DNA of 64,000 nucleotides. It comes from Trypanosoma brucei. Its lineage: Eukaryota. Of the stretch, positions 3,001 through 26,553 are shown piece after piece. Made by a program: the position numbers and the translations under genes. Each line of letters starts with the position of its first letter. Position 1 is the first letter of the stretch. The DNA is taken from the NCBI GenBank assembly GCA_000002445.1, contig CH464491.1, positions 2,432,001-2,496,000 on the forward strand, written 5' to 3'. Below the pieces are notes generated by a model. That model was not told where the DNA came from, did not search any database, and saw only the letters and a program-made list of their open reading frames with translations.

Positions 3001-3601
3001 CATCCGTGCAACCTTTGAGGACAAAATCTTCCCCTCCGATATCGTCTTCTGCCGAGCATGGAAAATGGTTGAGCCGCCTAAATATTGCTCAATCCAGCGC
3101 AACCTCGTGGACGCGGAATGGGTGGGGATGCGACCCATGCGGGAGTTGCGTTGGGCGCACGGTGTGCCGTTGGAATCCAAGAGCGACTCCGAATATCGTG
3201 AAATTAGGCGTCGTAACCGGGCGACTGTAGATGACGATGATGGAAAGGGCAAGACCCCTGATGTGCTCCTCTCGCGCAACCAAAGGCTGAAGTTACCTTT
3301 CAGTTTGAAGGAAGAATATATACCCCTGAAACGCAGCACCGCACTTCAGGAGCAAATTGCTGGTGCAACAACAGTTGCACCAGAGCCACGGGATATGCGC
3401 CGAACAGCGCTGCTAGACATATTAAACGAAAAAACAGAAGCGATGTGGAGGAAAAAAGTTGAGGCGAAGAAGCGAGTCCGTGAACGTCACTTGCGTGAGT
3501 CAAAGGCTGAGGAGGAAGAATACCAACGGCGACTCAAGAAGGCAAAGAAGGAAACGGCACGCCTTCGTGAGTTTCGGTCACAGCACAAGTCACGGAAGTA
3601 A
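2..3601 (+). CDS. BMS1: Ribosome biogenesis GTPase BMS1 (5'-partial: ORF is open to the window edge and the track start is a GTG; a few N-terminal codons lie upstream)
   Basis: P-loop 'AVVGPPGVGKSTLIRS' followed by the 'FLECP...DLILLMVDGSFGFEMETFEFLN' G-domain block. The C-terminal block 'YVRFVLENVPVEFV...KLKRHRWFPKILKAQDPLLLSMGWRRFQT' aligns almost residue-for-residue with the yeast Bms1 AARP2CN/DUF663 region. The middle is acidic/Ser-rich as in all Bms1 proteins. Long uninterrupted ORF (1199 aa). Confidence 0.85.
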   Translation: MGSKAVKKEEYRKKKAGIELQPNRGSNTKAFQGPTASSRKGQQLLRSLEKRETALHVPVVDKTLRHVVAEPPLLVAVVGPPGVGKSTLIRSMVKFYSNRNVQVVRGLITVVAGRSRRVTFLECPNTLTAMCDVAKVADLILLMVDGSFGFEMETFEFLNIAQVHGFPRMFGIVSHLDQLKTGKALRKKKRFLRHRFWHEVAAGAKVLCLAPMVRGMYRSTDVLKLHRLLICVEPKIQNWRNTHSCVVVDRYEDITAPQNVVDNEKCNRTIAFYGYARGRPMKVEQLVHIPGLGDFPIMHLSHQDDPCAFDEKNARGESKSQGHKMRHLGMKQKRIYAPYCDVSGVVYDDDAIYIQEDAEKSTIERSGEGLRLIRDLQRVKPIDAAATALEVVRRPVVFRGEDTMELDMGDVKGSNTSVSDDGEEKATESSDDSDWDSGEMASSAAAVKKDLLLYGPGGGDDGLRVNNPSADDAAGLAPRGRGAPDSVRENTIRNDWSNTDLLRRLKNLFVTGNWDSPNDDVGDAASSGAETEGSKGYESEDEEFDAIIRGEAPLDSTNVKDEHEENVDDEGNAETDEEEWDGDGETTDWGAFRPRDALANVGHTSKGTVPHMRNFRAAEAYGSITGGRKGADNDDMTDGSCYDILAEEGDDAVVDSAALSDPELDGLVATFLAPHDASAKRAETSSAALRDDDDSAIQFYDPNHFSKKNDTADDHNDEMEETTAIVGGKPLTEEQERLLQKRMAKKKAFNELYDMGGKNNTYSHYHEMTREVEAKKERLDTALQEVGHDITNKIKLVGHFSGLYVRFVLENVPVEFVQLFDPSVPIIAGGVNAGEDQFQVVHAKLKRHRWFPKILKAQDPLLLSMGWRRFQTQPILATEDPNGRMRYLKYTPMHMHCAAAFYAPVAPANTGFVAIPVREQRSPNFRISCTGYTVGNDLASNIVKKLKLIGTPQKIMKTTAFIKGMFNSDLEAAKYVGAKLKTVAGIRGIVKTVLKGKNGLIRATFEDKIFPSDIVFCRAWKMVEPPKYCSIQRNLVDAEWVGMRPMRELRWAHGVPLESKSDSEYREIRRRNRATVDDDDGKGKTPDVLLSRNQRLKLPFSLKEEYIPLKRSTALQEQIAGATTVAPEPRDMRRTALLDILNEKTEAMWRKKVEAKKRVRERHLRESKAEEEEYQRRLKKAKKETARLREFRSQHKSRK

Positions 3602-4837
3602 TGGTGGTGGACCACAAGTATGTATAAATATTTGTGTGCCTCACATGCGTATGTGTGCATGTTACTGCATAATAATATGATGGCGATGGTGTAACACACC
3701 CTGCAGATTCGTATTAAATGAGCGGGATTTGTTGCGATCAAGTATGGGTGCCATGACAGGGTGTAATAGATGATAGAAGGAACAGAGGAGACGGAGGTTC
3801 GCATAGCGAGTTGAGGAGCACCGATAGACGACTGCAAGAAAAGAAAGAAAGCGTTTTCTTTTTAATGTGGGGGAAGCGATGACGGCGGCTTTGTGTGAAA
3901 GTATCGGAGAACTACACGTCGGCGATTAGCTGATGTTCTTCAATTCCATTACATTGGGAATTTGTTGCCCGAGTCTTCGTTTGTGGTTGTTGCTGGCGCT
4001 CTTCTTGGGCTCCTTTTCATCCGTTCTCTCTTGATTGTACCATCTCTTTGTAACCCTGAGCCTTGGGGTGTAACAGTTTCCTTCTAACCGTTTAAACTGA
4101 GTTTCGAGTGGTTGAGTTTGAAGCAAGAAGAAATTAAAGAGACTAAAAAGAACACGTAATTTATCTATTTTAAAAAAACAATAAAAAAATAAGCAGTCGG
4201 TACCAATTTGCAGCGGCGGAGCAATGAGGTCTAAATCTCGAGCAATGCTTGACATTAGTGTGGTGCTCAGGTAGACTTGCGAAGTTAAGCGTACGGCTAC
4301 TGTGTTTCTTCCTTTGCCCCTAACCATTTCTTCCCCCCCCCGCCAGCTGACTAGGAAGTTACTAGCACACCAACCTAAATTAAGATCGGGATGGCCATCT
4401 TTCCCTGCACGGGTACAGTCGACGAGCTTTGATCAACCGAGAATCCAAAAGTTACTCATTGGTGGAGCTACCCGTACACACCTTCAGAAAGTTGTGGAAA
4501 ACAGTAAGGGGAGGAAATGATATTACGTTGCGATCAGTTCTCTCCCCTAATATATTCGGTTTTGTTTGGCTGGGGCGTTGGTGCTAATATTCACTATCAT
4601 TGTAAAAAAAACTGATGCTAGGGGTCTTATCAATCTGCACTTTTAAGTCATGTTTCTGGGGTGTCAGTTGAAAGCACCGGCAACAGGTTCGCGGAAGTCT
4701 ATCTCCTCAAATACACCTCCGCCAAAGCACGTATTCAGTATATTTTCCGTATTTCTGGAAAGTTGATGTGTGTGCGTGCATTGATCCTCAAGGTTGTAAC
4801 AACCGAGTGCTGGTTTGCTTCACCAACTTGTTGGCCC

Positions 4838-6890: not shown

Positions 6891-7751
6891 ATGGTCTTTT
6901 CAATTCCCTCATATCTTTGCCTTGGCGATCGTCCCAAGAAGGTGGTAGATGAACGGTTGCATGGTGTAAACTTTTTGACGTCACGTCCCAAAACAGGTCA
7001 CTACCCCGATGCATTGTTCGATAAGGAATTCCGTTACGTGTACAATGGGGACCGGTACCCCGATCCTGAAACGATGGCACGTCGAGAGCAGATGGAAAAT
7101 CGTAAGCGATACATAACGGCTACCGGTTTCATAAGTGTTTTTCGCCCAAAGAAGGGCGAAGGACTTGGCTCTAACTACGGCCTACTCCAACAAGAACCCT
7201 ACATACACATGCCCGATCACCCGCAGACCCGCGGACCGCAACCCTTCCCGAAGGTTAAACCGCGGCAGATATACACATCACCCAGTAAGGCTGGGAGTTA
7301 TGGAACTCCGGGGCTAGCGATAACTGACATTGGCAATGAATACATTGCTACCATATACGATCAAGAGCGCATTAATGCGAAGAAGGAACGAGATGTGTGG
7401 CGGCAACGCATGCCCCCCGTTCCCTTTAAACCGGTGGGGCGACGGGGTTACACATTCGACGAGGGGCCAGCTACTGGCGTGTCTATGTGCTACATAATGA
7501 CATGTCCATTCAGGGAAAAACGTGTGCAGCCGGTGATGAAGCACTTCATCATTGACAAAATGTGGCTTCCGGCTGGTTACATACCAGACCGGCCACCACC
7601 AGTAGAGTACTGGGAGGATCCTTACAATGGATTTGATCCCCGTGTGGACCCCAAGTCACGCCTGAAGAAATCAGAAGATTCAATATTTAGAACAGGTTTC
7701 CGCGGAGACAACTTTTTCTACACTCGGAGTATCGTGTTTAGGCGCCTGTGA
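6891..7751 (+). CDS. Conserved hypothetical protein (G/P/Y/F-rich, charged). Composition is reminiscent of the DUF4586/CFAP96 (C4orf47) flagellar family, which is a weak guess.
   Basis: 286-aa ORF in the sense orientation of the polycistron, with non-repetitive, protein-like composition. Motifs 'YGTPGLAITDIGNEY', 'FDEGPATG' and 'DPYNGFDPRVDP' recall the Y/G/P-rich DUF4586 repeats. The family assignment is from memory only. Confidence 0.5.
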   Translation: MVFSIPSYLCLGDRPKKVVDERLHGVNFLTSRPKTGHYPDALFDKEFRYVYNGDRYPDPETMARREQMENRKRYITATGFISVFRPKKGEGLGSNYGLLQQEPYIHMPDHPQTRGPQPFPKVKPRQIYTSPSKAGSYGTPGLAITDIGNEYIATIYDQERINAKKERDVWRQRMPPVPFKPVGRRGYTFDEGPATGVSMCYIMTCPFREKRVQPVMKHFIIDKMWLPAGYIPDRPPPVEYWEDPYNGFDPRVDPKSRLKKSEDSIFRTGFRGDNFFYTRSIVFRRL

Positions 7752-7940: not shown

Positions 7941-8982
7941 AGAGTGAAATTGAAGTAAGGAGGATGTGGCAGGTGGGAAAGCAATGGATAGTTTATTGCT
8001 TATTATTTAGAACATACCAGCTGCTGGAGAGATTCACGTTGGCTACACACCGTTGTTACAGGTGCTGCCTTCCACTCTATATAGGCCCCGTTTGTCAGCG
8101 ACCCAGAGGAGTTTCTCGATTACACTTCTGTAGGGGCCAGGTTAGACACATTTGGTGCATTGGCACAACGGAGGGTCCGGTTATGCATCCAATTGGACGA
8201 TGCGGGGCGAAGGGGTTTGGAGCAAACATGTGTGAAATGAGCAGGAGAGGGCGGATTTTTTGCTTACTAGTTTCTGGAAAGCACAACTGATATTTCCTGA
8301 CTTGGCTCAGAAAATTTTCCCCTTGCCATCGGGACTGCAACACCAATTTTGAGGCGTCCCTCTTCACGTTCCTCTCCCCCCTCCTTGCGTTTTGCGTCTT
8401 AATGTAGCCACGCATTGTCCTGAGACTCCCCACCACGCGTGAAGTTAACGGTTTATCACATGTATGCAAGAGTTTTTATACATTTGTATGGATCTGTTGG
8501 TGGGCATCCACTGAACGATTGTTGCCCCATCAGGCCACCCTTGCCGTCGTGTTTTGTTTGGCTGCGGAGTGCGTGCCGCGACTAGATAACTTTGTCGAGT
8601 TCATTTCTTGCTTTTGTCCTTACTTTTTTGGTTTCACCACATTTTTACATTCGCGGACGCTTTTAGTCGCAACTAAGAAGACGTGGCGACAGACACGAAC
8701 CTAAGGAACACAAGGGGTTGACAGAAAAAGAGTTCTAGATTTGAGCACCGTATTTTCGTATCGGGACGGGAAGTTTATATCAGCACCAGGTGTTTGGGAA
8801 AGAACCCTCTTCTTTTAAAGAAAGAAAACAAGATACACTTGCGCTGACTTCACGAACACAGATAAAGAGGTACACAGCGTGGAAGCAAAAAAAAAAATAA
8901 ATAGATTTTGTACTTTTAACGTCCTTGCTCTTATAAACATTTCCGGAGAAGAGGGGTGAGGTGGAGGCGGTTGAGTCGAGGT

Positions 8983-10992
8983 ATGCAAAGATTGGCAGGG
9001 AAGCGGCAAAGGCAACATGAAGCAAGCGACCTTGTCCCCAAAAGTGCTGAACCCGCCAGAAGTAAAAATTCCAGGAACACTGCTTCTGAACCGGGCTCGG
9101 GTTCCCTCCGGCACAACTCCATAGGAGGGGGAGATATGATGTGGAAACGGAAAACAAAGGAACTTCGGGAGCAGATTGTTCAATTAGCCGCACTGTATGC
9201 AACGAAGGAACGTGAGACCGAAGAAGTCCAAGACGCCATAGAGGAAATGGTTGTCTCACACGAGGCGGAGTTAGCGGGTGTTGTAGCGGGTGACGAATCC
9301 CATAGGCGGCGGCACGTCGATGCACTCGTTCACTTGCGGGCCCGTGAGGACGGCTGCCATTCTGAAAGGCAGCGTGCCTTGGACGAAACGGTGGTATTGC
9401 AGCAGCAGCGTACAGAACTGGAGCGAGCGCATGACCGCCTTCGGGAAGATATCGTTATTCAATCTGATGCGTTAGAGCAGCTTCAAAGGGAAATTGAAGA
9501 ACAATCAGAAGAACTGTTAGAGGAACAGAGAAAACTAGATGCGATAGTGGAGCACCACAACCTCATGAGGGATGCTACCTACGGGTTTTCCGGGGAGGTC
9601 CAGGAAATAATGAGGGAACTGGAGCGCATCAAGGTTGACAAGGAAAGGGTTGAAAGAGCCGGAAAGCAGACGGAAATATTACGGCGTCAGCTGTATTCAC
9701 AATGTGAAGAGATGAAGGGAACGATCCGCGTGTACTGCCGCGTTAAGGGTGGCTTGAACTCGGAGTCGGTTGCAGCGGGTCCGGTTCCTGATGTGCGTAG
9801 TGGGAGCAGCAACCCTTGCGGTGATCCTGATTTATGCCTCTCTGAGACCCCTCGCGAAGACTCTGTTTCCTCGCGGAGCACGATGCAAACAACCGTGAGC
9901 GCCAACCCAGCATGTATTTATGCTTCAAAGGAAATAGGGCAGATCAGAAGGGATGCTCCGGTGGGACGATTTATTTTCCCGGACGGTGATGCGACTGAGA
10001 AACGGTCGATTTGTGTGTTGCTTTCACGTAACAACGCCACCTCAACGGGAAGGCAAGAGTCGAAGGAAACATTTACTTTCGACCGTGTCTTCGACGGCAC
10101 CGCTAGCCAAGAGGCTGTTTACGCTGATGTCGAGCCCCTCGTAAACTGCGCCGTTGATGGCTACCGGGTTTGCGTTTTCGCTTACGGCCAGACGGGCTCC
10201 GGCAAAACCTATTCCATGCAGGGTGACCAACACGACGGGCAGCGCTGCGGCATAACACCCAGGGCACTACGGACAGTGTTCAAGCGGCGGGAAGAGTTAG
10301 AGGCTGATGGGTGGAAGTACCAACTTAGCTGCTATTTTGTGGAAATATACAACGAGGTTATCAGAGATTTGCTGCAAGAAGCTTCCCTGTACGAGCCCGG
10401 TGGGGCCGCGGCTTCCCAGCCAAATTATCACATCATCAAGCAAAGTAACGAAACTGGTTCAACAAGCATAAGCGGTGTTACAGAGAAGCGTATCAACTCA
10501 TTTGAGGACTTTCGGCGTTTGTATGACATCGCGATGAAGAACCGTAGCACGGCGAAGACGATGATAAACGACAGATCGTCCCGTTCCCACTGTATTTTCG
10601 TGCTGCGTATTATGGGCGAACACGCTGGTATACGTCAACGCAGTGAGGGGTCACTTTGCATGGTGGATTTGGCCGGGAGCGAGCGAGTACATGAGTCTGG
10701 TGTGCAAGGGAAACAGTTCAAGGAAGCAGTGAACATCAACCGCAGTTTGCTCGACCTCGGAAAGTGCATCAGTGCTCTTAACAAATCTGGAAGTGTGGCT
10801 CCATGGCGTAACTGCAAGTTGACATATTTACTGCAAAACTACCTGGGCGCAAAGGGTGGGAAGATGCTAATGCTCGTCACTGTGTCCGATCAGGAGGAGC
10901 ACTTGACAGAAAGTATCAATTCCCTTCGCTTCGCCAAACGCGTTAATCAGACGGCCATTGGCCCCTCAACGAAGCGTGTCGGTAACTTCTAA
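8983..10992 (+). CDS. Kinesin-14 family motor protein (C-terminal motor domain, N-terminal coiled coil)
   Basis: Motor motifs in the C-terminal third: P-loop 'AYGQTGSGKTYSMQG' (~10187-10210), switch I 'NDRSSRSHCIFVL', switch II 'VDLAGSER' (~10666-10683), and 'NINRSLLDLGKCISAL'. The long E/R/Q-rich heptad region (aa 60-250) is a predicted coiled coil. The motor lies at the C-terminus, which indicates kinesin-14/KIFC. The track start at 8956 is a GTG, and the first in-frame ATG is 8983. Confidence 0.85.
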   Translation: MQRLAGKRQRQHEASDLVPKSAEPARSKNSRNTASEPGSGSLRHNSIGGGDMMWKRKTKELREQIVQLAALYATKERETEEVQDAIEEMVVSHEAELAGVVAGDESHRRRHVDALVHLRAREDGCHSERQRALDETVVLQQQRTELERAHDRLREDIVIQSDALEQLQREIEEQSEELLEEQRKLDAIVEHHNLMRDATYGFSGEVQEIMRELERIKVDKERVERAGKQTEILRRQLYSQCEEMKGTIRVYCRVKGGLNSESVAAGPVPDVRSGSSNPCGDPDLCLSETPREDSVSSRSTMQTTVSANPACIYASKEIGQIRRDAPVGRFIFPDGDATEKRSICVLLSRNNATSTGRQESKETFTFDRVFDGTASQEAVYADVEPLVNCAVDGYRVCVFAYGQTGSGKTYSMQGDQHDGQRCGITPRALRTVFKRREELEADGWKYQLSCYFVEIYNEVIRDLLQEASLYEPGGAAASQPNYHIIKQSNETGSTSISGVTEKRINSFEDFRRLYDIAMKNRSTAKTMINDRSSRSHCIFVLRIMGEHAGIRQRSEGSLCMVDLAGSERVHESGVQGKQFKEAVNINRSLLDLGKCISALNKSGSVAPWRNCKLTYLLQNYLGAKGGKMLMLVTVSDQEEHLTESINSLRFAKRVNQTAIGPSTKRVGNF

Positions 10993-11200
10993 AGAGATGC
11001 TGTGAAAGTTCTTCTTCTTCTTTGCCTCTCGTAGCCACTAGACTCACTGTCTCCTACATATTTCTTGTTACTGACCATGTTTGTGTTGAAACTATCGGCG
11101 CGCCTCTGCCCGTTTCCACGGAAAGGCGTGCTGCTCCAGACAGGGAGGATCAGTGAGGCAGCGGGTGCATCTGGTTGTGTCTCACCTCGATGTGCGAGGA

Positions 11201-11202
<2 letters not shown>

Positions 11203-11236
<34 letters not shown>

Positions 11237-11240
11237 CGTA
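11203..11240. repeat. (TA)11-12 followed by a (TG)n microsatellite
   Basis: Reads 'cgtatatatatatatatatatatatatgtatgtgtgtgcgtatg', in the kinesin/RING-SNF2 intergenic region. Confidence 0.9.
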
Positions 11241-11792
11241 TGTTCTCTTATTAGTACATCACACTATCAGAGCGGACGTAAATCAGGCCTATATTTCGCC
11301 GGTTGGTGACCTTGGACCTGGCCAAAGAGTTTCTTCCGCCTTCTTATCATCGGGGATACGTGGTGTGTAAAATCAGTTTGCCCTACATGTCGGTACAGCA
11401 CCGCTGGAAATGGTAATTGCAGTACCGTTTTTGAATGCAGCAAGCGCACCTTTCGCTAAAACTTGGTCGACGTGTCGATGGCTACTTGTTCCCCTTGGCT
11501 TTTTCCGAATGGCGATCCCGAAAAAGGGGGGATAACGAAAGGTCGGACAGTGCTTTTACCCTTGATATTACCACATGTTTCCCTGCCCGTGCAACTCTGT
11601 CTTTTCCCTTTCTTTTCCTGTGGTGCAGTGAGGCAACCAAACAAGAATAAAAAGAAAGCGATTTTAAGGGAAGCAGGGAAGATAGTTCAAAGGGGTTGGA
11701 AAGGAAGAAAAGGCCAAGCACGAAGGGGAAGCTTCTGGCTCAGTGGGAGGCATATCGAGTACGGAAGCATCGACCCAAAGGAGTCGTAACAA

Positions 11793-14102
11793 ATGCTGCC
11801 TTGCCCAAGCGAAGGCACAACCCGTGATCTTCAAGGGGCGTGGTTTGGTGCAGCTACAGATTGTTGTTCAGATCACAATCCTTCAAGTGTTTACTCCGAC
11901 GATGGGCAGGCGCAGAATCCCGAAACCAACTTTTTGGATGAAAAAAGCGGTTGTGCTGGTGGAAGCGCGTGGGCAAAACTAACATCGGTTATCCCAGAAT
12001 TCAATGAAGGCAATGAAGAACTCCCTGAGCTTCCCGCATGTGTAGAGAAGCTCGGGCTGAGTCCCCTTGAGCAAAAGGTCTTTTCCTGGATGAGGGAGCA
12101 AGAAGAAAAACCATGGAGTTGTGAAATTTCCACCTTACTTCCCGAGGGTGCATCGCCTGTGGGGGAGCAAGTGGAGCAGGATAGGGCTAAAGGCGGTATA
12201 CTATTCGGTATCGGCAGTGATAAGCTGATGGCACCCCTGCGTGCGCTGCGTGAGGTCGATCATCAGAGAAGCCACTCTACACTGGAAACCACCGTTTGCA
12301 TCGATGGTGGTCCAATGCTTGTGTTGTGTAAGAAACGCCACGTACGGCGGTTAATGGAGATTCTGCATCATGATGGCGCCCACTCACTTTCCCGGGTTTT
12401 GGCTTACACCGGCCGAGGAAACGTTCACTTGACACCGACCCAGATAGGTTCGGATTATGATTATGTACTCTCAACGTACAGTACACTTCGGCGTGAGCCT
12501 GATCCGAGGTCCGAACTCCCAGGGAAACTGTACCTGGTCCACTGGAGGCGTGTTGTGCTTTTCGAGCCGTACTTCTTGTGTGACTTCACTCGCACTGAGA
12601 GCTACTTGTGCACTGAGTTGCAGGCAGACGCTCGGTGGATCTTCTGTGGAGAACGGTTTGTAATGCAAACACATAAACTCTACGGGTTTGTTCGTTTCTT
12701 GAACGAGCCGTCGTTAAAGTCATGGGTATTTTGGAGTGAACGAGTGGCGGACAAGAAGGGAGTGGATCGTTCGGTTTTCGATTCTGATAAAAACACGGAG
12801 CTGAAACGAGTGCTCTCTACAATGTGTCGTCAGACCCGGCGGGCATGCCTAATAAGGGAGGGTGGCCGAGGCGCCAACAGTATGAATGTGATTAAAGTCA
12901 ACCTAACGGAGGAGGAGAAGGAGTTCTACAACGCTACATTTGACAGGGCGGTGAGTAGTGTCTCCTCTTCAACTGATCAGCAAACGTCGTGCCTCCCGGT
13001 ACTCGAAATCATCAACTTGTGCCGTCTCATTACCCTTCATTTGTATGTTGGTCGGGAGACTTTTCAACGGATGAGCCCCCCGCCCCTCACTCCAGAAGAA
13101 CGCGAGGAGCAGCTAACGTCATTTTTCGACCTGCTTGCCAACGACGGATTGCGCGAGCGTGCATTCACCACAGAACTGAGGAATAAGTTACGAAGTGGAG
13201 TTCTTGACGAAGAATGTGGCATTTGTTTTTTGAGGATTAACACGCCTGGAATCCTTAACTGTGCGCACTATTTTTGCGTGGGATGCATTGACAAAATCAA
13301 GAAAAGCGGTCGCCCATACTGCCCCAATTGCAGAACTGTGCTAAATCATCGGACTGTCGTTCCACCCGGGTTGCTCAAGTGCCCTGAGGACGAACCTGTA
13401 CCGAGTGACTTTTCCCAGTGGGGTCCGAGCTCCAAGGCCGAGGTACTTGTCGAGAACTTGAAGAAACTCTCTGGCGACCACAGGGCGATTGTATTTGGTT
13501 GTTCAAGTCAATTCTTTCAATATTTGCAATGGTACCTGCGGCAACATGGGATGGATACTTACACTTTTGGCAGCTGCAAGGGACTGCAAGAAGTGAAAAG
13601 AGTACAACAATGGTTGGACAGCGGTGCCCAAGGGGCGAGTGCGGAGAGGAATGATGAAAGCAAGCATCTACCTCGTGTTCTGCTCGTCCTATTAACCGAC
13701 TGCGACGAAGACGTGCGCTTCAAGGGTATAACCCACTGCTTCTTCATGCACGCGACGTGGTGTCCCATTATCGAGCATCATGCTCTTCAATGCATTGAAC
13801 ATTGTGACGAGGAGAAAGAGTTGGAGGTGGTGAAGATTTTAGCAAATGTTGGGTTAGAACAGACAATTGATGAACTGTGCCAGAGGAAGCGGAGTGACGG
13901 TTCCGATGATTATATTACCTCAGCCGAGGTGTTTGAGGTGTTTAACGAAACTGCCAACGTCAATGATTTCATGGTTCGTACCACCACACAGGTTCCGCAA
14001 AACGAAGAGGGCGAGAACAACGAAGAGGGCGAGAACAACGAAGAGGGCTACGAGAGTGACGAAGAGTACGAGGGCGACGAAGAGGATGGTGATAATCAGT
14101 GA
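11793..14102 (+). CDS. RAD5/HLTF/SHPRH-like RING-finger SNF2-family protein with all ATPase motifs degenerate (putative pseudo-helicase). The C-terminal tail is acidic and repetitive.
   Basis: C3HC4 RING 'CGICFLRINTPGILNCAHYFCVGCIDKIKKSGRPYCPNCR' (~13214-13334) sits between two SNF2-like lobes. SNF2 lobe-1 scaffold is present but substituted: motif I 'GGILFGIGSDKLMA' (consensus GGILADEMGLGKT), 'PMLVLCKKRHVRRLMEIL', 'YDYVLSTYSTL', motif II 'WRRVVLFEPYF' (consensus W.RVILDEAH), motif III region 'RWIFCGERFVMQTHKLYGFVRFL' (consensus RW.LTGTPIQN...LFSLLRFL), then 'VNLTEEEKEFYNATFDRA' and 'LEIINLCRLITLHLYV'. Lobe 2 'AIVFGCSSQFFQYLQWYL...WLDSG' also lacks the Q..R.R.GQ arginine finger. The tail is 'NEEGENNEEGENNEEGYESDEEYEGDEEDGDNQ'. 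Confidence 0.75.
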   Translation: MLPCPSEGTTRDLQGAWFGAATDCCSDHNPSSVYSDDGQAQNPETNFLDEKSGCAGGSAWAKLTSVIPEFNEGNEELPELPACVEKLGLSPLEQKVFSWMREQEEKPWSCEISTLLPEGASPVGEQVEQDRAKGGILFGIGSDKLMAPLRALREVDHQRSHSTLETTVCIDGGPMLVLCKKRHVRRLMEILHHDGAHSLSRVLAYTGRGNVHLTPTQIGSDYDYVLSTYSTLRREPDPRSELPGKLYLVHWRRVVLFEPYFLCDFTRTESYLCTELQADARWIFCGERFVMQTHKLYGFVRFLNEPSLKSWVFWSERVADKKGVDRSVFDSDKNTELKRVLSTMCRQTRRACLIREGGRGANSMNVIKVNLTEEEKEFYNATFDRAVSSVSSSTDQQTSCLPVLEIINLCRLITLHLYVGRETFQRMSPPPLTPEEREEQLTSFFDLLANDGLRERAFTTELRNKLRSGVLDEECGICFLRINTPGILNCAHYFCVGCIDKIKKSGRPYCPNCRTVLNHRTVVPPGLLKCPEDEPVPSDFSQWGPSSKAEVLVENLKKLSGDHRAIVFGCSSQFFQYLQWYLRQHGMDTYTFGSCKGLQEVKRVQQWLDSGAQGASAERNDESKHLPRVLLVLLTDCDEDVRFKGITHCFFMHATWCPIIEHHALQCIEHCDEEKELEVVKILANVGLEQTIDELCQRKRSDGSDDYITSAEVFEVFNETANVNDFMVRTTTQVPQNEEGENNEEGENNEEGYESDEEYEGDEEDGDNQ
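14001..14054 (+). repeat. 18-bp in-frame tandem repeat (3 copies) encoding NEEGEN at the C-terminus of the RING-SNF2 protein
   Basis: Reads 'aacgaagagggcgagaac' x2, then the variant 'aacgaagagggctacgag'. Confidence 0.85.
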
Positions 14103-15405: not shown

Positions 15406-16797
15406 ATGCAGCAGCCATCACAACAACAGATTCAACCAATCGATTCCTTGTCGCCATTCCTTGGCGGCAAGTGGTGGATTCGCGCTCGCGTGACGGACAA
15501 GTCTGAAATACGAACGTGGAATAAACCAACCTCACAGGGGAAGCTGTTTTCTTTTACGCTCATTGACGAGTCTGCTTCTATCCGAGCGACGGTATTCAAT
15601 GAGGCCGTCGACATGTTCAATCCCCTCATAGTGAACGGACAGGTTTACTACTTTAGTGGGGGTCAGGTAAAAAATGCCAACCGTAAGTTCAGTAATGTGA
15701 ATAATGACTACGAGTTGAGCTTTGACAACACCTGTCAAATATCAGCAGCAAGGGATGTCGTTAGCTCGTCGATTCCCCTACAGCGGTATAACTTTGTGCC
15801 AATTGCCATCCTCAAGCAACGAGAAGTCGGTTCTTTAGTCGACGTGCTGGCTGTTGTGTTGAATGTGGAGGAATTGGGCACCATCGTACAGAGATCAACT
15901 GGTCGTGAGTTGGTCAGACGCACCGTGAAGGTTGCCGATTCCACCGCGGGGATTGACGTCACCCTGTGGAACGAAAACGCCAAAGAGTGGCCACATCAAC
16001 CTGGCACCGTACTGGCAATGCGGCAACTTAAGGTGGGGAGTTTTGATGGTGTAACGCTCTCCACAACAATGCAGTCATCGTTTGATGTTAATCCAAACAT
16101 CCCTGACGTGAAGAAGCTTCGTGAATGGTTTGAATCTACGGGTGGACGGGACGTCAGTTCACTTTCAATGCAGGGAAATAATGCTTTGGGGCTCGCGAGC
16201 AGTGGAGAAACCTACCGCGGCTACAAGTACATTGATGACATAACGACTGAGGGGCTCGGAAAAGGCCCGAAGCCGGACTACATCGATTTGCGTTGCGTTC
16301 CTGTTTACCTCAAACAGGATACACAGTGGTACGATGCCTGTCCACAATGCAACAAGAAAGTGATGCTCGAAGGGGCAATGGGTGATCGCTTCCGTTGTGA
16401 GAAATGTGACCAATCTATTGTACCAACACAACGGTACTTGGTGTCTATTCAAGTCACAGATAACGTTTCGCAGGTGTGGCTCACGCTCTTTAATGAGTCG
16501 GGAGCCGAGTTCTTTGGCATGACGGCTCCTGAACTAAAAAGACGTCAGGAGGAGGATCCCATGTTTGTGACAAAAGTGGCCCAGATGCGCATGAACCGTC
16601 CTGTGCTCATGCGTCTTCGTGTGAAGGAGGAGGGTCTCGGTGGCAATGAAGATTCGGAAAGGGTGCGCTTAAATGTTGTGCGCATTACGGAGTTTATGCC
16701 GCTGGACACCGTGACGGAGGATAAGCGACAAGCCATGGCGGCACAACTGCGGCAGGAGTGCGACGAAATGATTAAATGCATTAATGCCTACTTGTAA
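15406..16797 (+). CDS. RPA1: Replication protein A large subunit (RPA1; the short ~51 kDa kinetoplastid form lacking the 70N domain)
   Basis: OB-fold DBD-A/B blocks ('WWIRARVTDKSEIRTWNKPTSQGKLFSFTLIDESASIRATVFNEAVDMF', 'VYYFSGGQVKNANRKFSNVNNDYELSFD', 'VDVLAVVLNVEELGTIV...TLWN'). DBD-C has a C4 zinc ribbon 'CPQCNKKVMLEGAMGDRFRCEKCDQ' (~16338-16412) and the C-terminal 'VSIQVTDNVSQVWLTLFNESGAEFFG' block. Size is 463 aa. Confidence 0.9.
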   Translation: MQQPSQQQIQPIDSLSPFLGGKWWIRARVTDKSEIRTWNKPTSQGKLFSFTLIDESASIRATVFNEAVDMFNPLIVNGQVYYFSGGQVKNANRKFSNVNNDYELSFDNTCQISAARDVVSSSIPLQRYNFVPIAILKQREVGSLVDVLAVVLNVEELGTIVQRSTGRELVRRTVKVADSTAGIDVTLWNENAKEWPHQPGTVLAMRQLKVGSFDGVTLSTTMQSSFDVNPNIPDVKKLREWFESTGGRDVSSLSMQGNNALGLASSGETYRGYKYIDDITTEGLGKGPKPDYIDLRCVPVYLKQDTQWYDACPQCNKKVMLEGAMGDRFRCEKCDQSIVPTQRYLVSIQVTDNVSQVWLTLFNESGAEFFGMTAPELKRRQEEDPMFVTKVAQMRMNRPVLMRLRVKEEGLGGNEDSERVRLNVVRITEFMPLDTVTEDKRQAMAAQLRQECDEMIKCINAYL

Positions 16798-25185: not shown

Positions 25186-26553
25186 ATGGAGGATTTCGTT
25201 GTTGTGCCGGTGGAGGTGCGGTGTAGGCAAATGTGTACAGATGCCGCTGAGCTTTCAAAGGTTATCACGAGTTTCATACGGCACCGCAACGGTGTTACAC
25301 ACCCGGGTGACATTATCCCGCTTTGGGGTGCATCCGAGCTTATCACATCAACAGTTGAGCTCTTGCGGGTATGTGACGTTTATTGCCCACTTAACGGGGT
25401 TGCAGCGGGCAGGGCGGATTACGCATTGGTGATGTACTACCTTCATGGAGATGATGTGTCTATGGCAATGCAAGGAGAGGAAACTTCCGAGTCGCAGGCG
25501 CTGTTAACCTACCGCGATTCAGACGACGAAGTGGATGCATCGACTGTCCCTTGCTCCATAGTGCAGATACCGCATGCATCGCTAGAAGGCCTGTGGGAGT
25601 CGATGCATTTCGGGGACTCTACCTGTGACACGGTGGAGCTTAAGCGTGACTTGTTGCAATATATGCACACTGCAATGGTTTTCTCTATGGCTGATGTGAA
25701 CCCACAAGTCATCGCGTGGAATCAGTTGGTGCTGCTACACGGGCCCCCCGGCACAGGGAAGACATCTTTTTGTAAAGCACTTTCACATAAACTTTCTATA
25801 CGGCTTGCGGGAATATTTCCCAAGGCGAAGCTGGTAGAGGTTAACACTCAAAGTTTGTTTAGTCGTTGGTTTAGTGAGAGTGGGAAGCATGTCATGGGCC
25901 TGTTCCGCCGTATACACACGATGGCGGAGGATTCCAAATGCCTTCTTTTTGTCCTCGTGGACGAGGTGGAATCACTAGCTGGCGCGAGGAACTCTGCAAT
26001 GAGGGGTAACGAGCCCTCAGATGCTATCCGTGTCGTCAACACTCTGTTAACTCAGCTGGACATTCTACAGAAAAAGAGGAACGTGGTGATATTAGCTACG
26101 AGTAACATCACCGGGGCCATTGATGTCGCGTTTGTTGATCGTGCTGACAAGAAGGTATTTATTGGCCCACCGGGGTTACCAGCCCGTCTGCAACTAATCA
26201 GGGCAAGTACGCAAGAGTTGGTTCAGAGGCGGTTAATTATGCTTGATCCTCCCAATGATCAGGGGTTCATAGGCGCAGGGGGGCTGATGCCGATCGGGGA
26301 AGGTCGTGTAGAACTCAATGCGAGAGAGTTGCAGCGGCTTGAGCTGGTGGCGGCGCAATGTGATACCTTCAGTGGAAGGACTCTGAAGAAGCTTCCTTTC
26401 CTTGCCTACAGCAAACACATTGGTGGGTCCCCAGTCTTCACTACCGGAGAGAGTAGTACCGCATCTGCTATCTCATTTGACACGTACATTAAAAGCTTGA
26501 CGAGTGCTGTAGAGGGAGAAATATTATCGAGGAGAATGATGGTGTCATCATAG
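25186..26553 (+). CDS. PCH2: Pachytene checkpoint protein 2 / TRIP13 AAA+ ATPase (HORMA-domain remodeller)
   Basis: Near-identical blocks to human TRIP13: 'LVLLHGPPGTGKTSFCKALSHKLSIRL' (Walker A ~25741-25770), 'LFSRWFSESGKHV', Walker B 'LLFVLVDEVESLAGAR', 'EPSDAIRVVNTLLTQLD', 'NVVILATSNITGAIDVAFVDRADKKVFIGPP', and 'FSGRTLKKLPFLAY'. The N-terminal domain (~170 aa) precedes the AAA module as in Pch2. Confidence 0.85.
   Translation: MEDFVVVPVEVRCRQMCTDAAELSKVITSFIRHRNGVTHPGDIIPLWGASELITSTVELLRVCDVYCPLNGVAAGRADYALVMYYLHGDDVSMAMQGEETSESQALLTYRDSDDEVDASTVPCSIVQIPHASLEGLWESMHFGDSTCDTVELKRDLLQYMHTAMVFSMADVNPQVIAWNQLVLLHGPPGTGKTSFCKALSHKLSIRLAGIFPKAKLVEVNTQSLFSRWFSESGKHVMGLFRRIHTMAEDSKCLLFVLVDEVESLAGARNSAMRGNEPSDAIRVVNTLLTQLDILQKKRNVVILATSNITGAIDVAFVDRADKKVFIGPPGLPARLQLIRASTQELVQRRLIMLDPPNDQGFIGAGGLMPIGEGRVELNARELQRLELVAAQCDTFSGRTLKKLPFLAYSKHIGGSPVFTTGESSTASAISFDTYIKSLTSAVEGEILSRRMMVSS

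Follow-up and report, generated by a model that had tools for sequence, protein, structure and literature searches.

The 64,000-nucleotide window analysed here (GenBank contig CH464491.1, positions 2,432,001 to 2,496,000, forward strand) is part of chromosome 11 of Trypanosoma brucei brucei TREU927. All its large open reading frames (ORFs) lie on the + strand, which is the layout expected of a trypanosome polycistronic unit. ORF 11793..14102 is complete, encodes 769 amino acids (aa) plus stop and corresponds to Tb927.11.9120 (ORF list, with the identifier taken from the nuclear proteome table), a gene whose existing annotation rests on domain content and suggests an 'SNF2 helicase'. On its 5' side lies Tb927.11.9110, a C-terminal motor kinesin (window 8956-10992), and on its 3' side Tb927.11.9130, i.e. 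RPA1 (EAN79866/Q384B5; window 15406-16797). The translations of eight neighbouring window ORFs are identical to TREU927 proteins, RPA1 and Tb11.01.0900 being two of these. Tb927.11.9120 combines an SNF2 fold, in which every catalytic ATPase motif is replaced, with a C3HC4 RING finger inserted between the two lobes, and its features are the following:

11793..14102, + strand: complete ORF of the SNF2-RING pseudo-ATPase Tb927.11.9120 (ORF list, flanking genes)
11793..11987, + strand: N-terminal region, aa 1-65, predicted to be disordered (predicted local distance difference test, pLDDT, <50)
12084..13031, + strand: SNF2 lobe 1 with helical insertions, aa 98-413 (Pfam SNF2-rel_dom, strands and helices of the model)
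12192..12230, + strand: degenerate motif I (Walker A), GGILFGIGSDKLM, aa 134-146 (alignments)
12312..12365, + strand: motif Ia region, PMLVLCKKRHVRRLMEIL in place of ATLIVCPxSLLxQWxxEI (BLASTP with P0001, MAFFT)
12549..12575, + strand: degenerate motif II (Walker B), RVVLFEPYF in place of RxxLDEAHx (alignments)
12633..12668, + strand: degenerate motif III, RWIFCGERFVMQ in place of RWxVTATPxxN (alignments)
13215..13331, + strand: C3HC4 RING finger between the lobes, aa 475-513 (Pfam, alignment)
13428..13907, + strand: SNF2 lobe 2, aa 546-705, fold kept (alignments with Rad5 and P0001, model)
13692..13730, + strand: degenerate motif V, LTDCDEDVRFKGI in place of xxxCGVGLNLTxA (alignment)
13773..13814, + strand: degenerate motif VI, EHHALQCIEHCDEE in place of EEQALNRIHRIGQx (alignments)
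13989..14099, + strand: acidic low-complexity C-terminal tail, aa 733-769 (translation, Tandem Repeats Finder (TRF), pLDDT <50)

Structurally, Tb927.11.9120 belongs to the Snf2 family, as it has two RecA-like lobes and the Snf2-specific helical insertions. The SNF2 scaffold with a RING, which had been proposed in a preliminary description of this DNA, is recovered by profile, sequence and structure searches. Pfam SNF2-rel_dom matches aa 98-413 with E=3.9e-13 (49.6 bits at a cut-off of 24.9 bits; profile positions 7-284 of 290), phmmer aligns aa 223-703 with Rad5 from Kluyveromyces lactis (PDB 6l8n; E=4e-11), and in a BLASTP search a fungal HIRAN-SNF2-RING protein (P0001) is co-linear with aa 66-700 (E=3e-35). 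In the AlphaFold2 model, which was built from 81 sequences (mean pLDDT 78.2, predicted template modelling score 0.75), strands and helices alternate on both sides of the RING, and the best Foldseek match of this model in the PDB is again Rad5 (9e-28, identity ~18%), followed by CSB, Mot1, SMARCAD1, ISW1, Chd1 and others. Every entry of the Foldseek top 50 is a Snf2-family motor or a close relative; modest global TM-scores, as obtained here, are to be expected if the lobes are oriented differently. A Pfam Helicase_C match, which the preliminary description had anticipated, was not detected in Tb927.11.9120, but lobe 2 is seen in the alignments, which extend to residue 703 with Rad5 (phmmer) and to residue 700 with P0001 (BLASTP), and in the model, which has confident β/α elements at residues 564-702.

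The placement of the ATPase motifs on this fold agrees in three independent alignments, i.e. phmmer with Rad5, BLASTP with P0001 and a MAFFT alignment of 16 sequences. In motif I GGIL---FGIGSDKLM replaces GGILADxMGLGKT, so that three residues are deleted and the GKT is gone. VVLFEPY of motif II (aa 254-260, 12552-12572) has FEPY at the position of DEAH, and in motif III, which contains CGERFVMQTH (aa 285-294), FCGERF is aligned with VT[AG]TP. Motif V reads CDEDVRF as compared to CGVGLNL, and motif VI HALQCIEHCDE as compared to QALNRIHRIGQ, both arginines and the GQ having been lost. Thus, the replacement of motifs I, II, III and VI, as noted in the preliminary description, whose quoted peptides are all present in the ORF where it had placed them, extends to motif V as well. 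An intact GKT or DEAH elsewhere, which according to that description would have spoken against the reading, was not seen: GK[T/S] is absent from the whole protein, D[DE]x[HQD] occurs only in the terminal tails (aa 36 and aa 762), and neither G[LIVM]GK[TS] nor [LIVM]DE[AGC]H is found in the other two + strand frames, so that a frameshift or an intact motif hidden in another of these frames was rejected. With motifs I, II, III, V and VI all replaced, Tb927.11.9120 falls outside the motif-based enzymatic definition of the Snf2 family, and it is predicted to have no DNA-dependent ATPase or translocase activity.

The extent of this loss was surveyed in the best 150 of 1,023 homologues, which an exhaustive search with HMMER had found among 1.84 billion representatives. 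Among these 150, only Tb927.11.9120 and TCIL3000_11_9470 from Trypanosoma congolense lack all motifs; apart from the Trypanosoma grayi protein (see below), the other full-length proteins keep them, and the exceptions are mostly truncated entries or entries altered at a single motif. TCIL3000_11_9470 is also the best match (33-34% identity to Tb927.11.9120, 33% over 635 aligned positions and 40% in the RING) and is likewise motif-dead, with GGVLCSASCDELM in motif I and with RVVLFHPPF, LLHLVHV and LECINWQYGQ. The second match, XP_009306434 from Trypanosoma grayi ('DNA repair protein-like protein', 29-31% identity), is an intermediate that keeps GKT and DEAH and has TPTP in motif III and SCLQRIGQ in motif VI. 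The orthologues from Phytomonas and the Leishmaniinae as well as those from several further relatives have all motifs intact, the proteins of the Leishmaniinae being ~1,300 aa long and named 'RanBP-type and C3HC4-type zinc finger-containing protein' or 'DNA repair protein, putative'. The preliminary description had expected the substitutions to be common to other kinetoplastids, and this is the case for T. congolense but not for T. grayi, Phytomonas and the Leishmaniinae, which retain GKT and DEAH. The Pfam scores follow the same pattern: SNF2-rel_dom is matched with 199 bits in P0004 (an orthologue from a further relative), 188 bits in the Leishmania orthologue, 174 bits in Phytomonas and 132 bits in T. 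grayi, all of which contain Helicase_C, and with 50 bits in T. brucei and 36 bits in T. congolense, where Helicase_C is absent. In their architecture the kinetoplastid orthologues (T. grayi XP_009306434, Phytomonas EM1 CCW62310, Phytomonas Hart1, Leishmania/Porcisia) resemble Tb927.11.9120, as they are composed of lobe 1, the helical insertion, the RING, lobe 2 and an acidic tail. They differ from it in keeping GKT, DEAH and Helicase_C and, with the exception of T. grayi, also [ST]ATP, GVGLNL and QAxxRxHRxGQ.

The comparison with T. congolense bears on whether Tb927.11.9120 might still act as an ATPase or a nucleotide sensor via a non-canonical site, e.g. one formed by Lys144 (GSDKL) and Glu258 (FEPY). 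In T. brucei, K144 is indeed located near the former P-loop, and the Glu of DEAH is present as E258. Neither residue, however, is conserved in T. congolense (CDELM and FHPP), the P-loop has its three-residue deletion and no Ser/Thr, the Mg-binding Asp is a Phe in both species and both arginines of motif VI are gone. We thus regard such a site as extremely improbable.

Gene order settles the relationship of Tb927.11.9120 to the motif-intact proteins. The order AARP2CN - CFAP96 - kinesin - (Aldolase_II) - SNF2-RING - RPA1 - RESC7 is common to T. brucei, T. grayi (locus L001) and Phytomonas EM1 (locus L002), the latter two being the species for which synteny was checked. As the same kinesin - gene - RPA1 neighbourhood is found in both, Tb927.11.9120 is the degenerate syntenic orthologue of a kinetoplastid-wide SNF2-RING protein and not a paralogue, and the idea that the VTATP-intact kinetoplastid proteins are paralogues was rejected by this synteny.

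Two further differences were seen at these loci. Between the kinesin and the SNF2-RING gene, T. grayi (L001 8789-9454) and Phytomonas (L002 8067-8750) have an Aldolase_II gene (class II aldolase/adducin domain, 221-227 aa, 67% mutual identity). T. brucei has an 800-bp intergenic stretch (10993-11792) at this position, and tblastn gave no match to Aldolase_II within the 64-kb window, i.e. T. brucei seems to have lost this gene or to carry it elsewhere. Moreover, a 423-aa gene of T. grayi without Pfam match (L001 979-2250), located between AARP2CN and Methyltransf_16, was not found by tblastn in the T. brucei window (cf. ~3601-4768).

As the RING sits between SNF2-rel_dom (98-413) and lobe 2 (546-705), co-linear with Rad5 and P0001, Tb927.11.9120 has the inserted RING on which the Rad5/16-like grouping of RING-containing Snf2 proteins is based. 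The assignment to a RAD5/HLTF type in the preliminary description is therefore correct as to this RING-in-helicase kind but not as to orthology: HIRAN gives no match at E<=10 in Tb927.11.9120 and none at E<=0.01 in the scanned kinetoplastid orthologues, and the genuine T. brucei Rad5 homologue, TbRAD5, which has a HIRAN domain, is encoded elsewhere (Tb927.7.1090), so that Rad5/HLTF orthology was rejected. A word-index homology search with the full protein returned a single fungal match (the acidic tail probably swamped the candidates, and recall was poor), and the same kind of search with the alignment of the T. brucei and T. congolense proteins returned no matches.

Many kinetoplastid orthologues, the Leishmaniinae among them, carry one or two N-terminal zinc fingers of the RanBP2/NZF type with the pattern W-x-C-x2-C-x3-N-x6-C-x2-C (P0004, P0008, P0010, P0013, P0182-P0185; alignment A3, columns 130-300). 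Pfam Zn_ribbon_RanBP matches P0004 with E=9e-5, the sole match among five orthologues scanned. Unlike the Leishmaniinae and several relatives, Tb927.11.9120 is without these fingers, which in the alignment are also not present in the proteins from T. congolense, T. grayi and Phytomonas. NZF fingers often bind ubiquitin, and this hints that the ancestral SNF2-RING protein may have read as well as written ubiquitin marks.

The RING finger itself is preserved. It is matched above the Pfam cut-offs by zf-C3HC4 (5.4e-07) and zf-C3HC4_3 (6.5e-07), with scores comparable to those of the motif-intact orthologues, and all 8 Zn ligands (C475, C478, C490, H492, C495, C498, C510 and C513) are present and invariant in the 16 aligned sequences. 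An intact C3HC4 RING at the position known from RAD5/HLTF, as the preliminary description had it, is thus borne out. Besides the ligands, Ile477, Pro511 and Arg514 are kept in T. brucei and T. congolense, and we take these to be the positions that generally contact the ubiquitin-loaded ubiquitin-conjugating enzyme (E2~ubiquitin) in RING ubiquitin ligases (E3s). The conservation of the eight ligands and these three residues in both species argues for a working E3 surface.

In T. grayi (P0003, L001 10001-12376, RING aa 498-535) the RING reads C-A-T-C-N as compared to C-P-x-C-[RK] in T. brucei, T. congolense and most orthologues. The E2-binding surface is hence less canonical in the species that keeps the ATPase motifs and canonical in those that lose them; as this is a comparison with a single species per side, it may mean nothing.

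The state of the RING also bears on the view that the protein is a pure non-catalytic scaffold or regulator, in which ATPase and RING are both silent and which pairs with an active RING protein or an SNF2 paralogue, e.g. TbRAD5. RING partners of the BARD1 type and many pseudoenzymes modulate active relatives, and pseudoenzymes commonly regulate their paralogues. The motif loss in Tb927.11.9120 is complete, at least one RING-SNF2 paralogue that looks active is encoded in T. brucei (TbRAD5, Tb927.7.1090), and Walker B changes in Rad5 can disturb contacts to E2 or substrate, all of which would fit this view. The eight Zn ligands as well as Ile477, Pro511 and Arg514, which are kept in both species, speak for a functional RING, however, and we consider a pure scaffold rather unlikely.

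When the motifs were lost can be narrowed down by using as reference 188 alignment columns that are conserved in 9 or all 10 of the orthologues from outside Trypanosoma. T. brucei and T. congolense both keep 51 of them, including all RING ligands and core hydrophobic residues, and both are altered in 84, at 41 of which T. grayi has the ancestral state. Many changes are identical in the two species, among them D257F (Walker B), N642R (motif V) and R667C (motif VI), so the decay began before T. brucei and T. congolense split. The first Arg of motif VI is a Cys in T. grayi, too, and this is therefore an older change. According to Tajima's relative-rate test, both African lineages have accumulated ~2-3 times as many unique changes as T. 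grayi: with Phytomonas as outgroup the counts were 143 vs 49 (p=1e-11), and three other outgroups gave a similar result. Between T. brucei and T. congolense there is no such difference (60 vs 64). The identity between the T. brucei and T. grayi proteins amounts to 29%, as compared to 53-78% for neighbouring genes.

Such acceleration might indicate a gene that is being lost, i.e. an expressed relic without selected function, the ORF of which has survived by chance. The strong acceleration relative to T. grayi, the low identity to orthologues (29-33% vs 53-78% for neighbouring genes) and the absence of the adjacent Aldolase_II gene from the T. brucei locus are in line with this, as is the fact that Tb927.11.9120 is not among the listed rows of a methyl methanesulfonate RNA interference screen table in which both neighbours are listed. 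The 769-codon ORF of T. brucei is complete, however, and the T. congolense frame is open over 647 codons up to the contig end (annotated product 718 aa), although 66% of the 4-fold degenerate sites in codons for identical residues differ between the two species, which is near saturation. Frames that stay intact and residues that are kept at such synonymous divergence require purifying selection on the protein, and the 51 of 188 family-conserved positions retained in both species include the whole RING. Furthermore, the gene is expressed: in the nuclear proteome of procyclic cells (Goos et al. 2017, PMC5519215, Table S1A) Tb927.11.9120 was detected with 17 peptides and quantified in 4 of 4 nuclear and 4 of 4 whole-cell samples, and its nuclear enrichment score (NES) of 2.07 (~4-fold, p=0.0089) passes the thresholds of that study (NES >= 0.7, p <= 0.05). 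A relic with 17 peptides in 8 of 8 samples and enrichment in nuclei is very unlikely in our view. Tb927.11.9120 is not a pseudogene; it has homologues of the active type, has lost the catalytic residues, and is selected and expressed, i.e. it is a pseudoenzyme, or more precisely a pseudo-ATPase. We classify it as a lineage-specific pseudo-ATPase derivative of a Snf2-RING E3, the loss being confined to a narrow clade as far as seen.

Based on these findings we propose that Tb927.11.9120 is most likely an ATP-independent RING E3 or E3 adaptor built on a dead SNF2 scaffold, a reading in which we have reasonable confidence. The residues for ATP binding and hydrolysis were replaced on the branch that gave rise to T. 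brucei and T. congolense, and purifying selection has retained the two-lobe fold, the inserted RING and the reading frame; the dead SNF2 lobes may then serve as a rigid scaffold that binds a partner, a substrate or the E2 instead of acting as a DNA translocase. A precedent is found in Rad5, where the ATPase-dead rad5-QD protein is fully competent in PCNA polyubiquitination (PMC4357696), so that E3 function is independent of ATP hydrolysis, which is the state proposed for Tb927.11.9120. Given this precedent and the nuclear enrichment, a role as chromatin-associated E3 adaptor rather than as translocase is plausible. The analysis itself establishes the homology and fold, the motif loss and its timing, the integrity of the RING, orthology, selection, expression and the enrichment in nuclei; we infer the absence of ATPase activity, the E3 activity and the binding to DNA or chromatin.

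Several points weigh against this proposal. The Walker B region of Rad5 aids the interaction with PCNA and Ubc13, and the rad5-AA protein is E3-defective (PMC4357696); as Walker B supports these contacts in Rad5, the replacement of motif II in Tb927.11.9120 could have altered its partners or weakened its ligase function. Both the loss of the ATPase and the retention of the E3 are deduced from sequence. The DNA-contact motifs Ia and V are changed, motif V now being acidic (CDEDV), and DNA binding thus appears doubtful, making the 'chromatin adaptor' the weakest step. The nuclear enrichment comes from a single fractionation study of procyclic cells. Constraint on the SNF2-RING gene is modest, given its rapid evolution in every lineage: T. 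grayi and Phytomonas have 33% identity here, as compared to 46-71% in neighbouring genes. Finally, within the genus Trypanosoma the survey of motif states covers T. brucei, T. congolense and T. grayi.

In a more far-reaching version, an ancestral SNF2-RING DNA-repair motor of the kinetoplastids would have become, in the African (salivarian) trypanosomes, a nuclear ubiquitin-ligase adaptor that works without ATP and has a new, lineage-specific role, perhaps in chromatin or replication-stress processes found only in these parasites. Jointly with this role, the Arg of motif VI would have been lost first in the genus Trypanosoma, and motifs I, II, III and V later in the ancestor of T. brucei and T. 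congolense. We put this combination forward as a speculation that is more likely wrong than right by a wide measure.

Outside lobes and RING, an 18-bp tandem repeat at 14001-14084 (2.7 perfect or up to 4.4 degenerate copies, TRF) encodes part of the acidic tail as NEEGEN repeats. Acidic C-terminal tails are also present in the orthologues from T. grayi, Phytomonas and the Leishmaniinae in the 16-sequence alignment, and because of this the tail may be functional, e.g. as histone- or partner-binding element or as phosphorylation region. Upstream of Tb927.11.9120, a (TA)13.5 microsatellite occupies the intergenic positions 11203-11229 of the window and gives rise to 'YIYIYIYMYV' in a spurious 101-aa ORF (11065-11370). 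In T. b. gambiense DAL972, annotated proteins are shorter than the TREU927 ORFs for the DUF4586/CFAP96-like gene (window 6891-7751; 225 vs 286 aa) and for an ATPase-like gene (window 25186-26553; 399 vs 455 aa), which probably reflects differences in start-codon annotation.

Among known systems, Rad5 (S. cerevisiae, or K. lactis 6l8n) and HLTF are similar in having an SNF2 fold with a C3HC4 RING between the lobes, and Rad5 is the closest solved structure by sequence and fold. Unlike Rad5 and HLTF, Tb927.11.9120 contains no HIRAN domain, has all catalytic motifs replaced and shows an identity of only ~18%. In concept it resembles Utp25 of the yeast small subunit processome, which is described as a pseudohelicase with sequence similarity to helicases (PMC9539457); Utp25 differs in belonging to another family of helicase superfamily 2 (similarity to RNA helicases, not Snf2), in having no RING and in its role in ribosome assembly. 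Our literature searches retrieved no paper discussing Tb927.11.9120 (Tb11.01.0860, Q384B6) and no described pseudoenzyme of the Snf2 family, with the Utp25 pseudohelicase as the nearest concept; further matches in the literature concerned RPA1 and unrelated genes. Papers on SWR1 and on R-loops do not cover Tb927.11.9120, the text of the TrypTag supplement contains none of the three gene identifiers looked for, and a literature match to L. mexicana BDF7 was discarded as it concerns an unrelated gene.

Rad5, HLTF, SHPRH and Rad16 couple a DNA motor to a ubiquitin ligase, and to what extent the ligase requires the motor, a question addressed so far with engineered point mutants, is still debated. 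Tb927.11.9120 is a natural, selected and expressed version in which the chemistry of the motor is gone and RING and fold are retained, a finding that would mildly surprise a specialist in Snf2 proteins or pseudoenzymes. As motif-intact orthologues at the same locus provide built-in controls, it offers a tractable test of what an Snf2 scaffold adds to the function of an E3 when no ATP is used, and the transition to a pseudoenzyme can be dated within one genus. Tb927.11.9120 is thus something other than the annotated 'SNF2 helicase', and caution is advised when function is inferred from the Leishmania orthologues. If the lineage-specific adaptor role were true, the gene would represent a natural separation-of-function allele, i.e. 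an E3 without its motor, fixed stepwise in the evolution of these trypanosomes.

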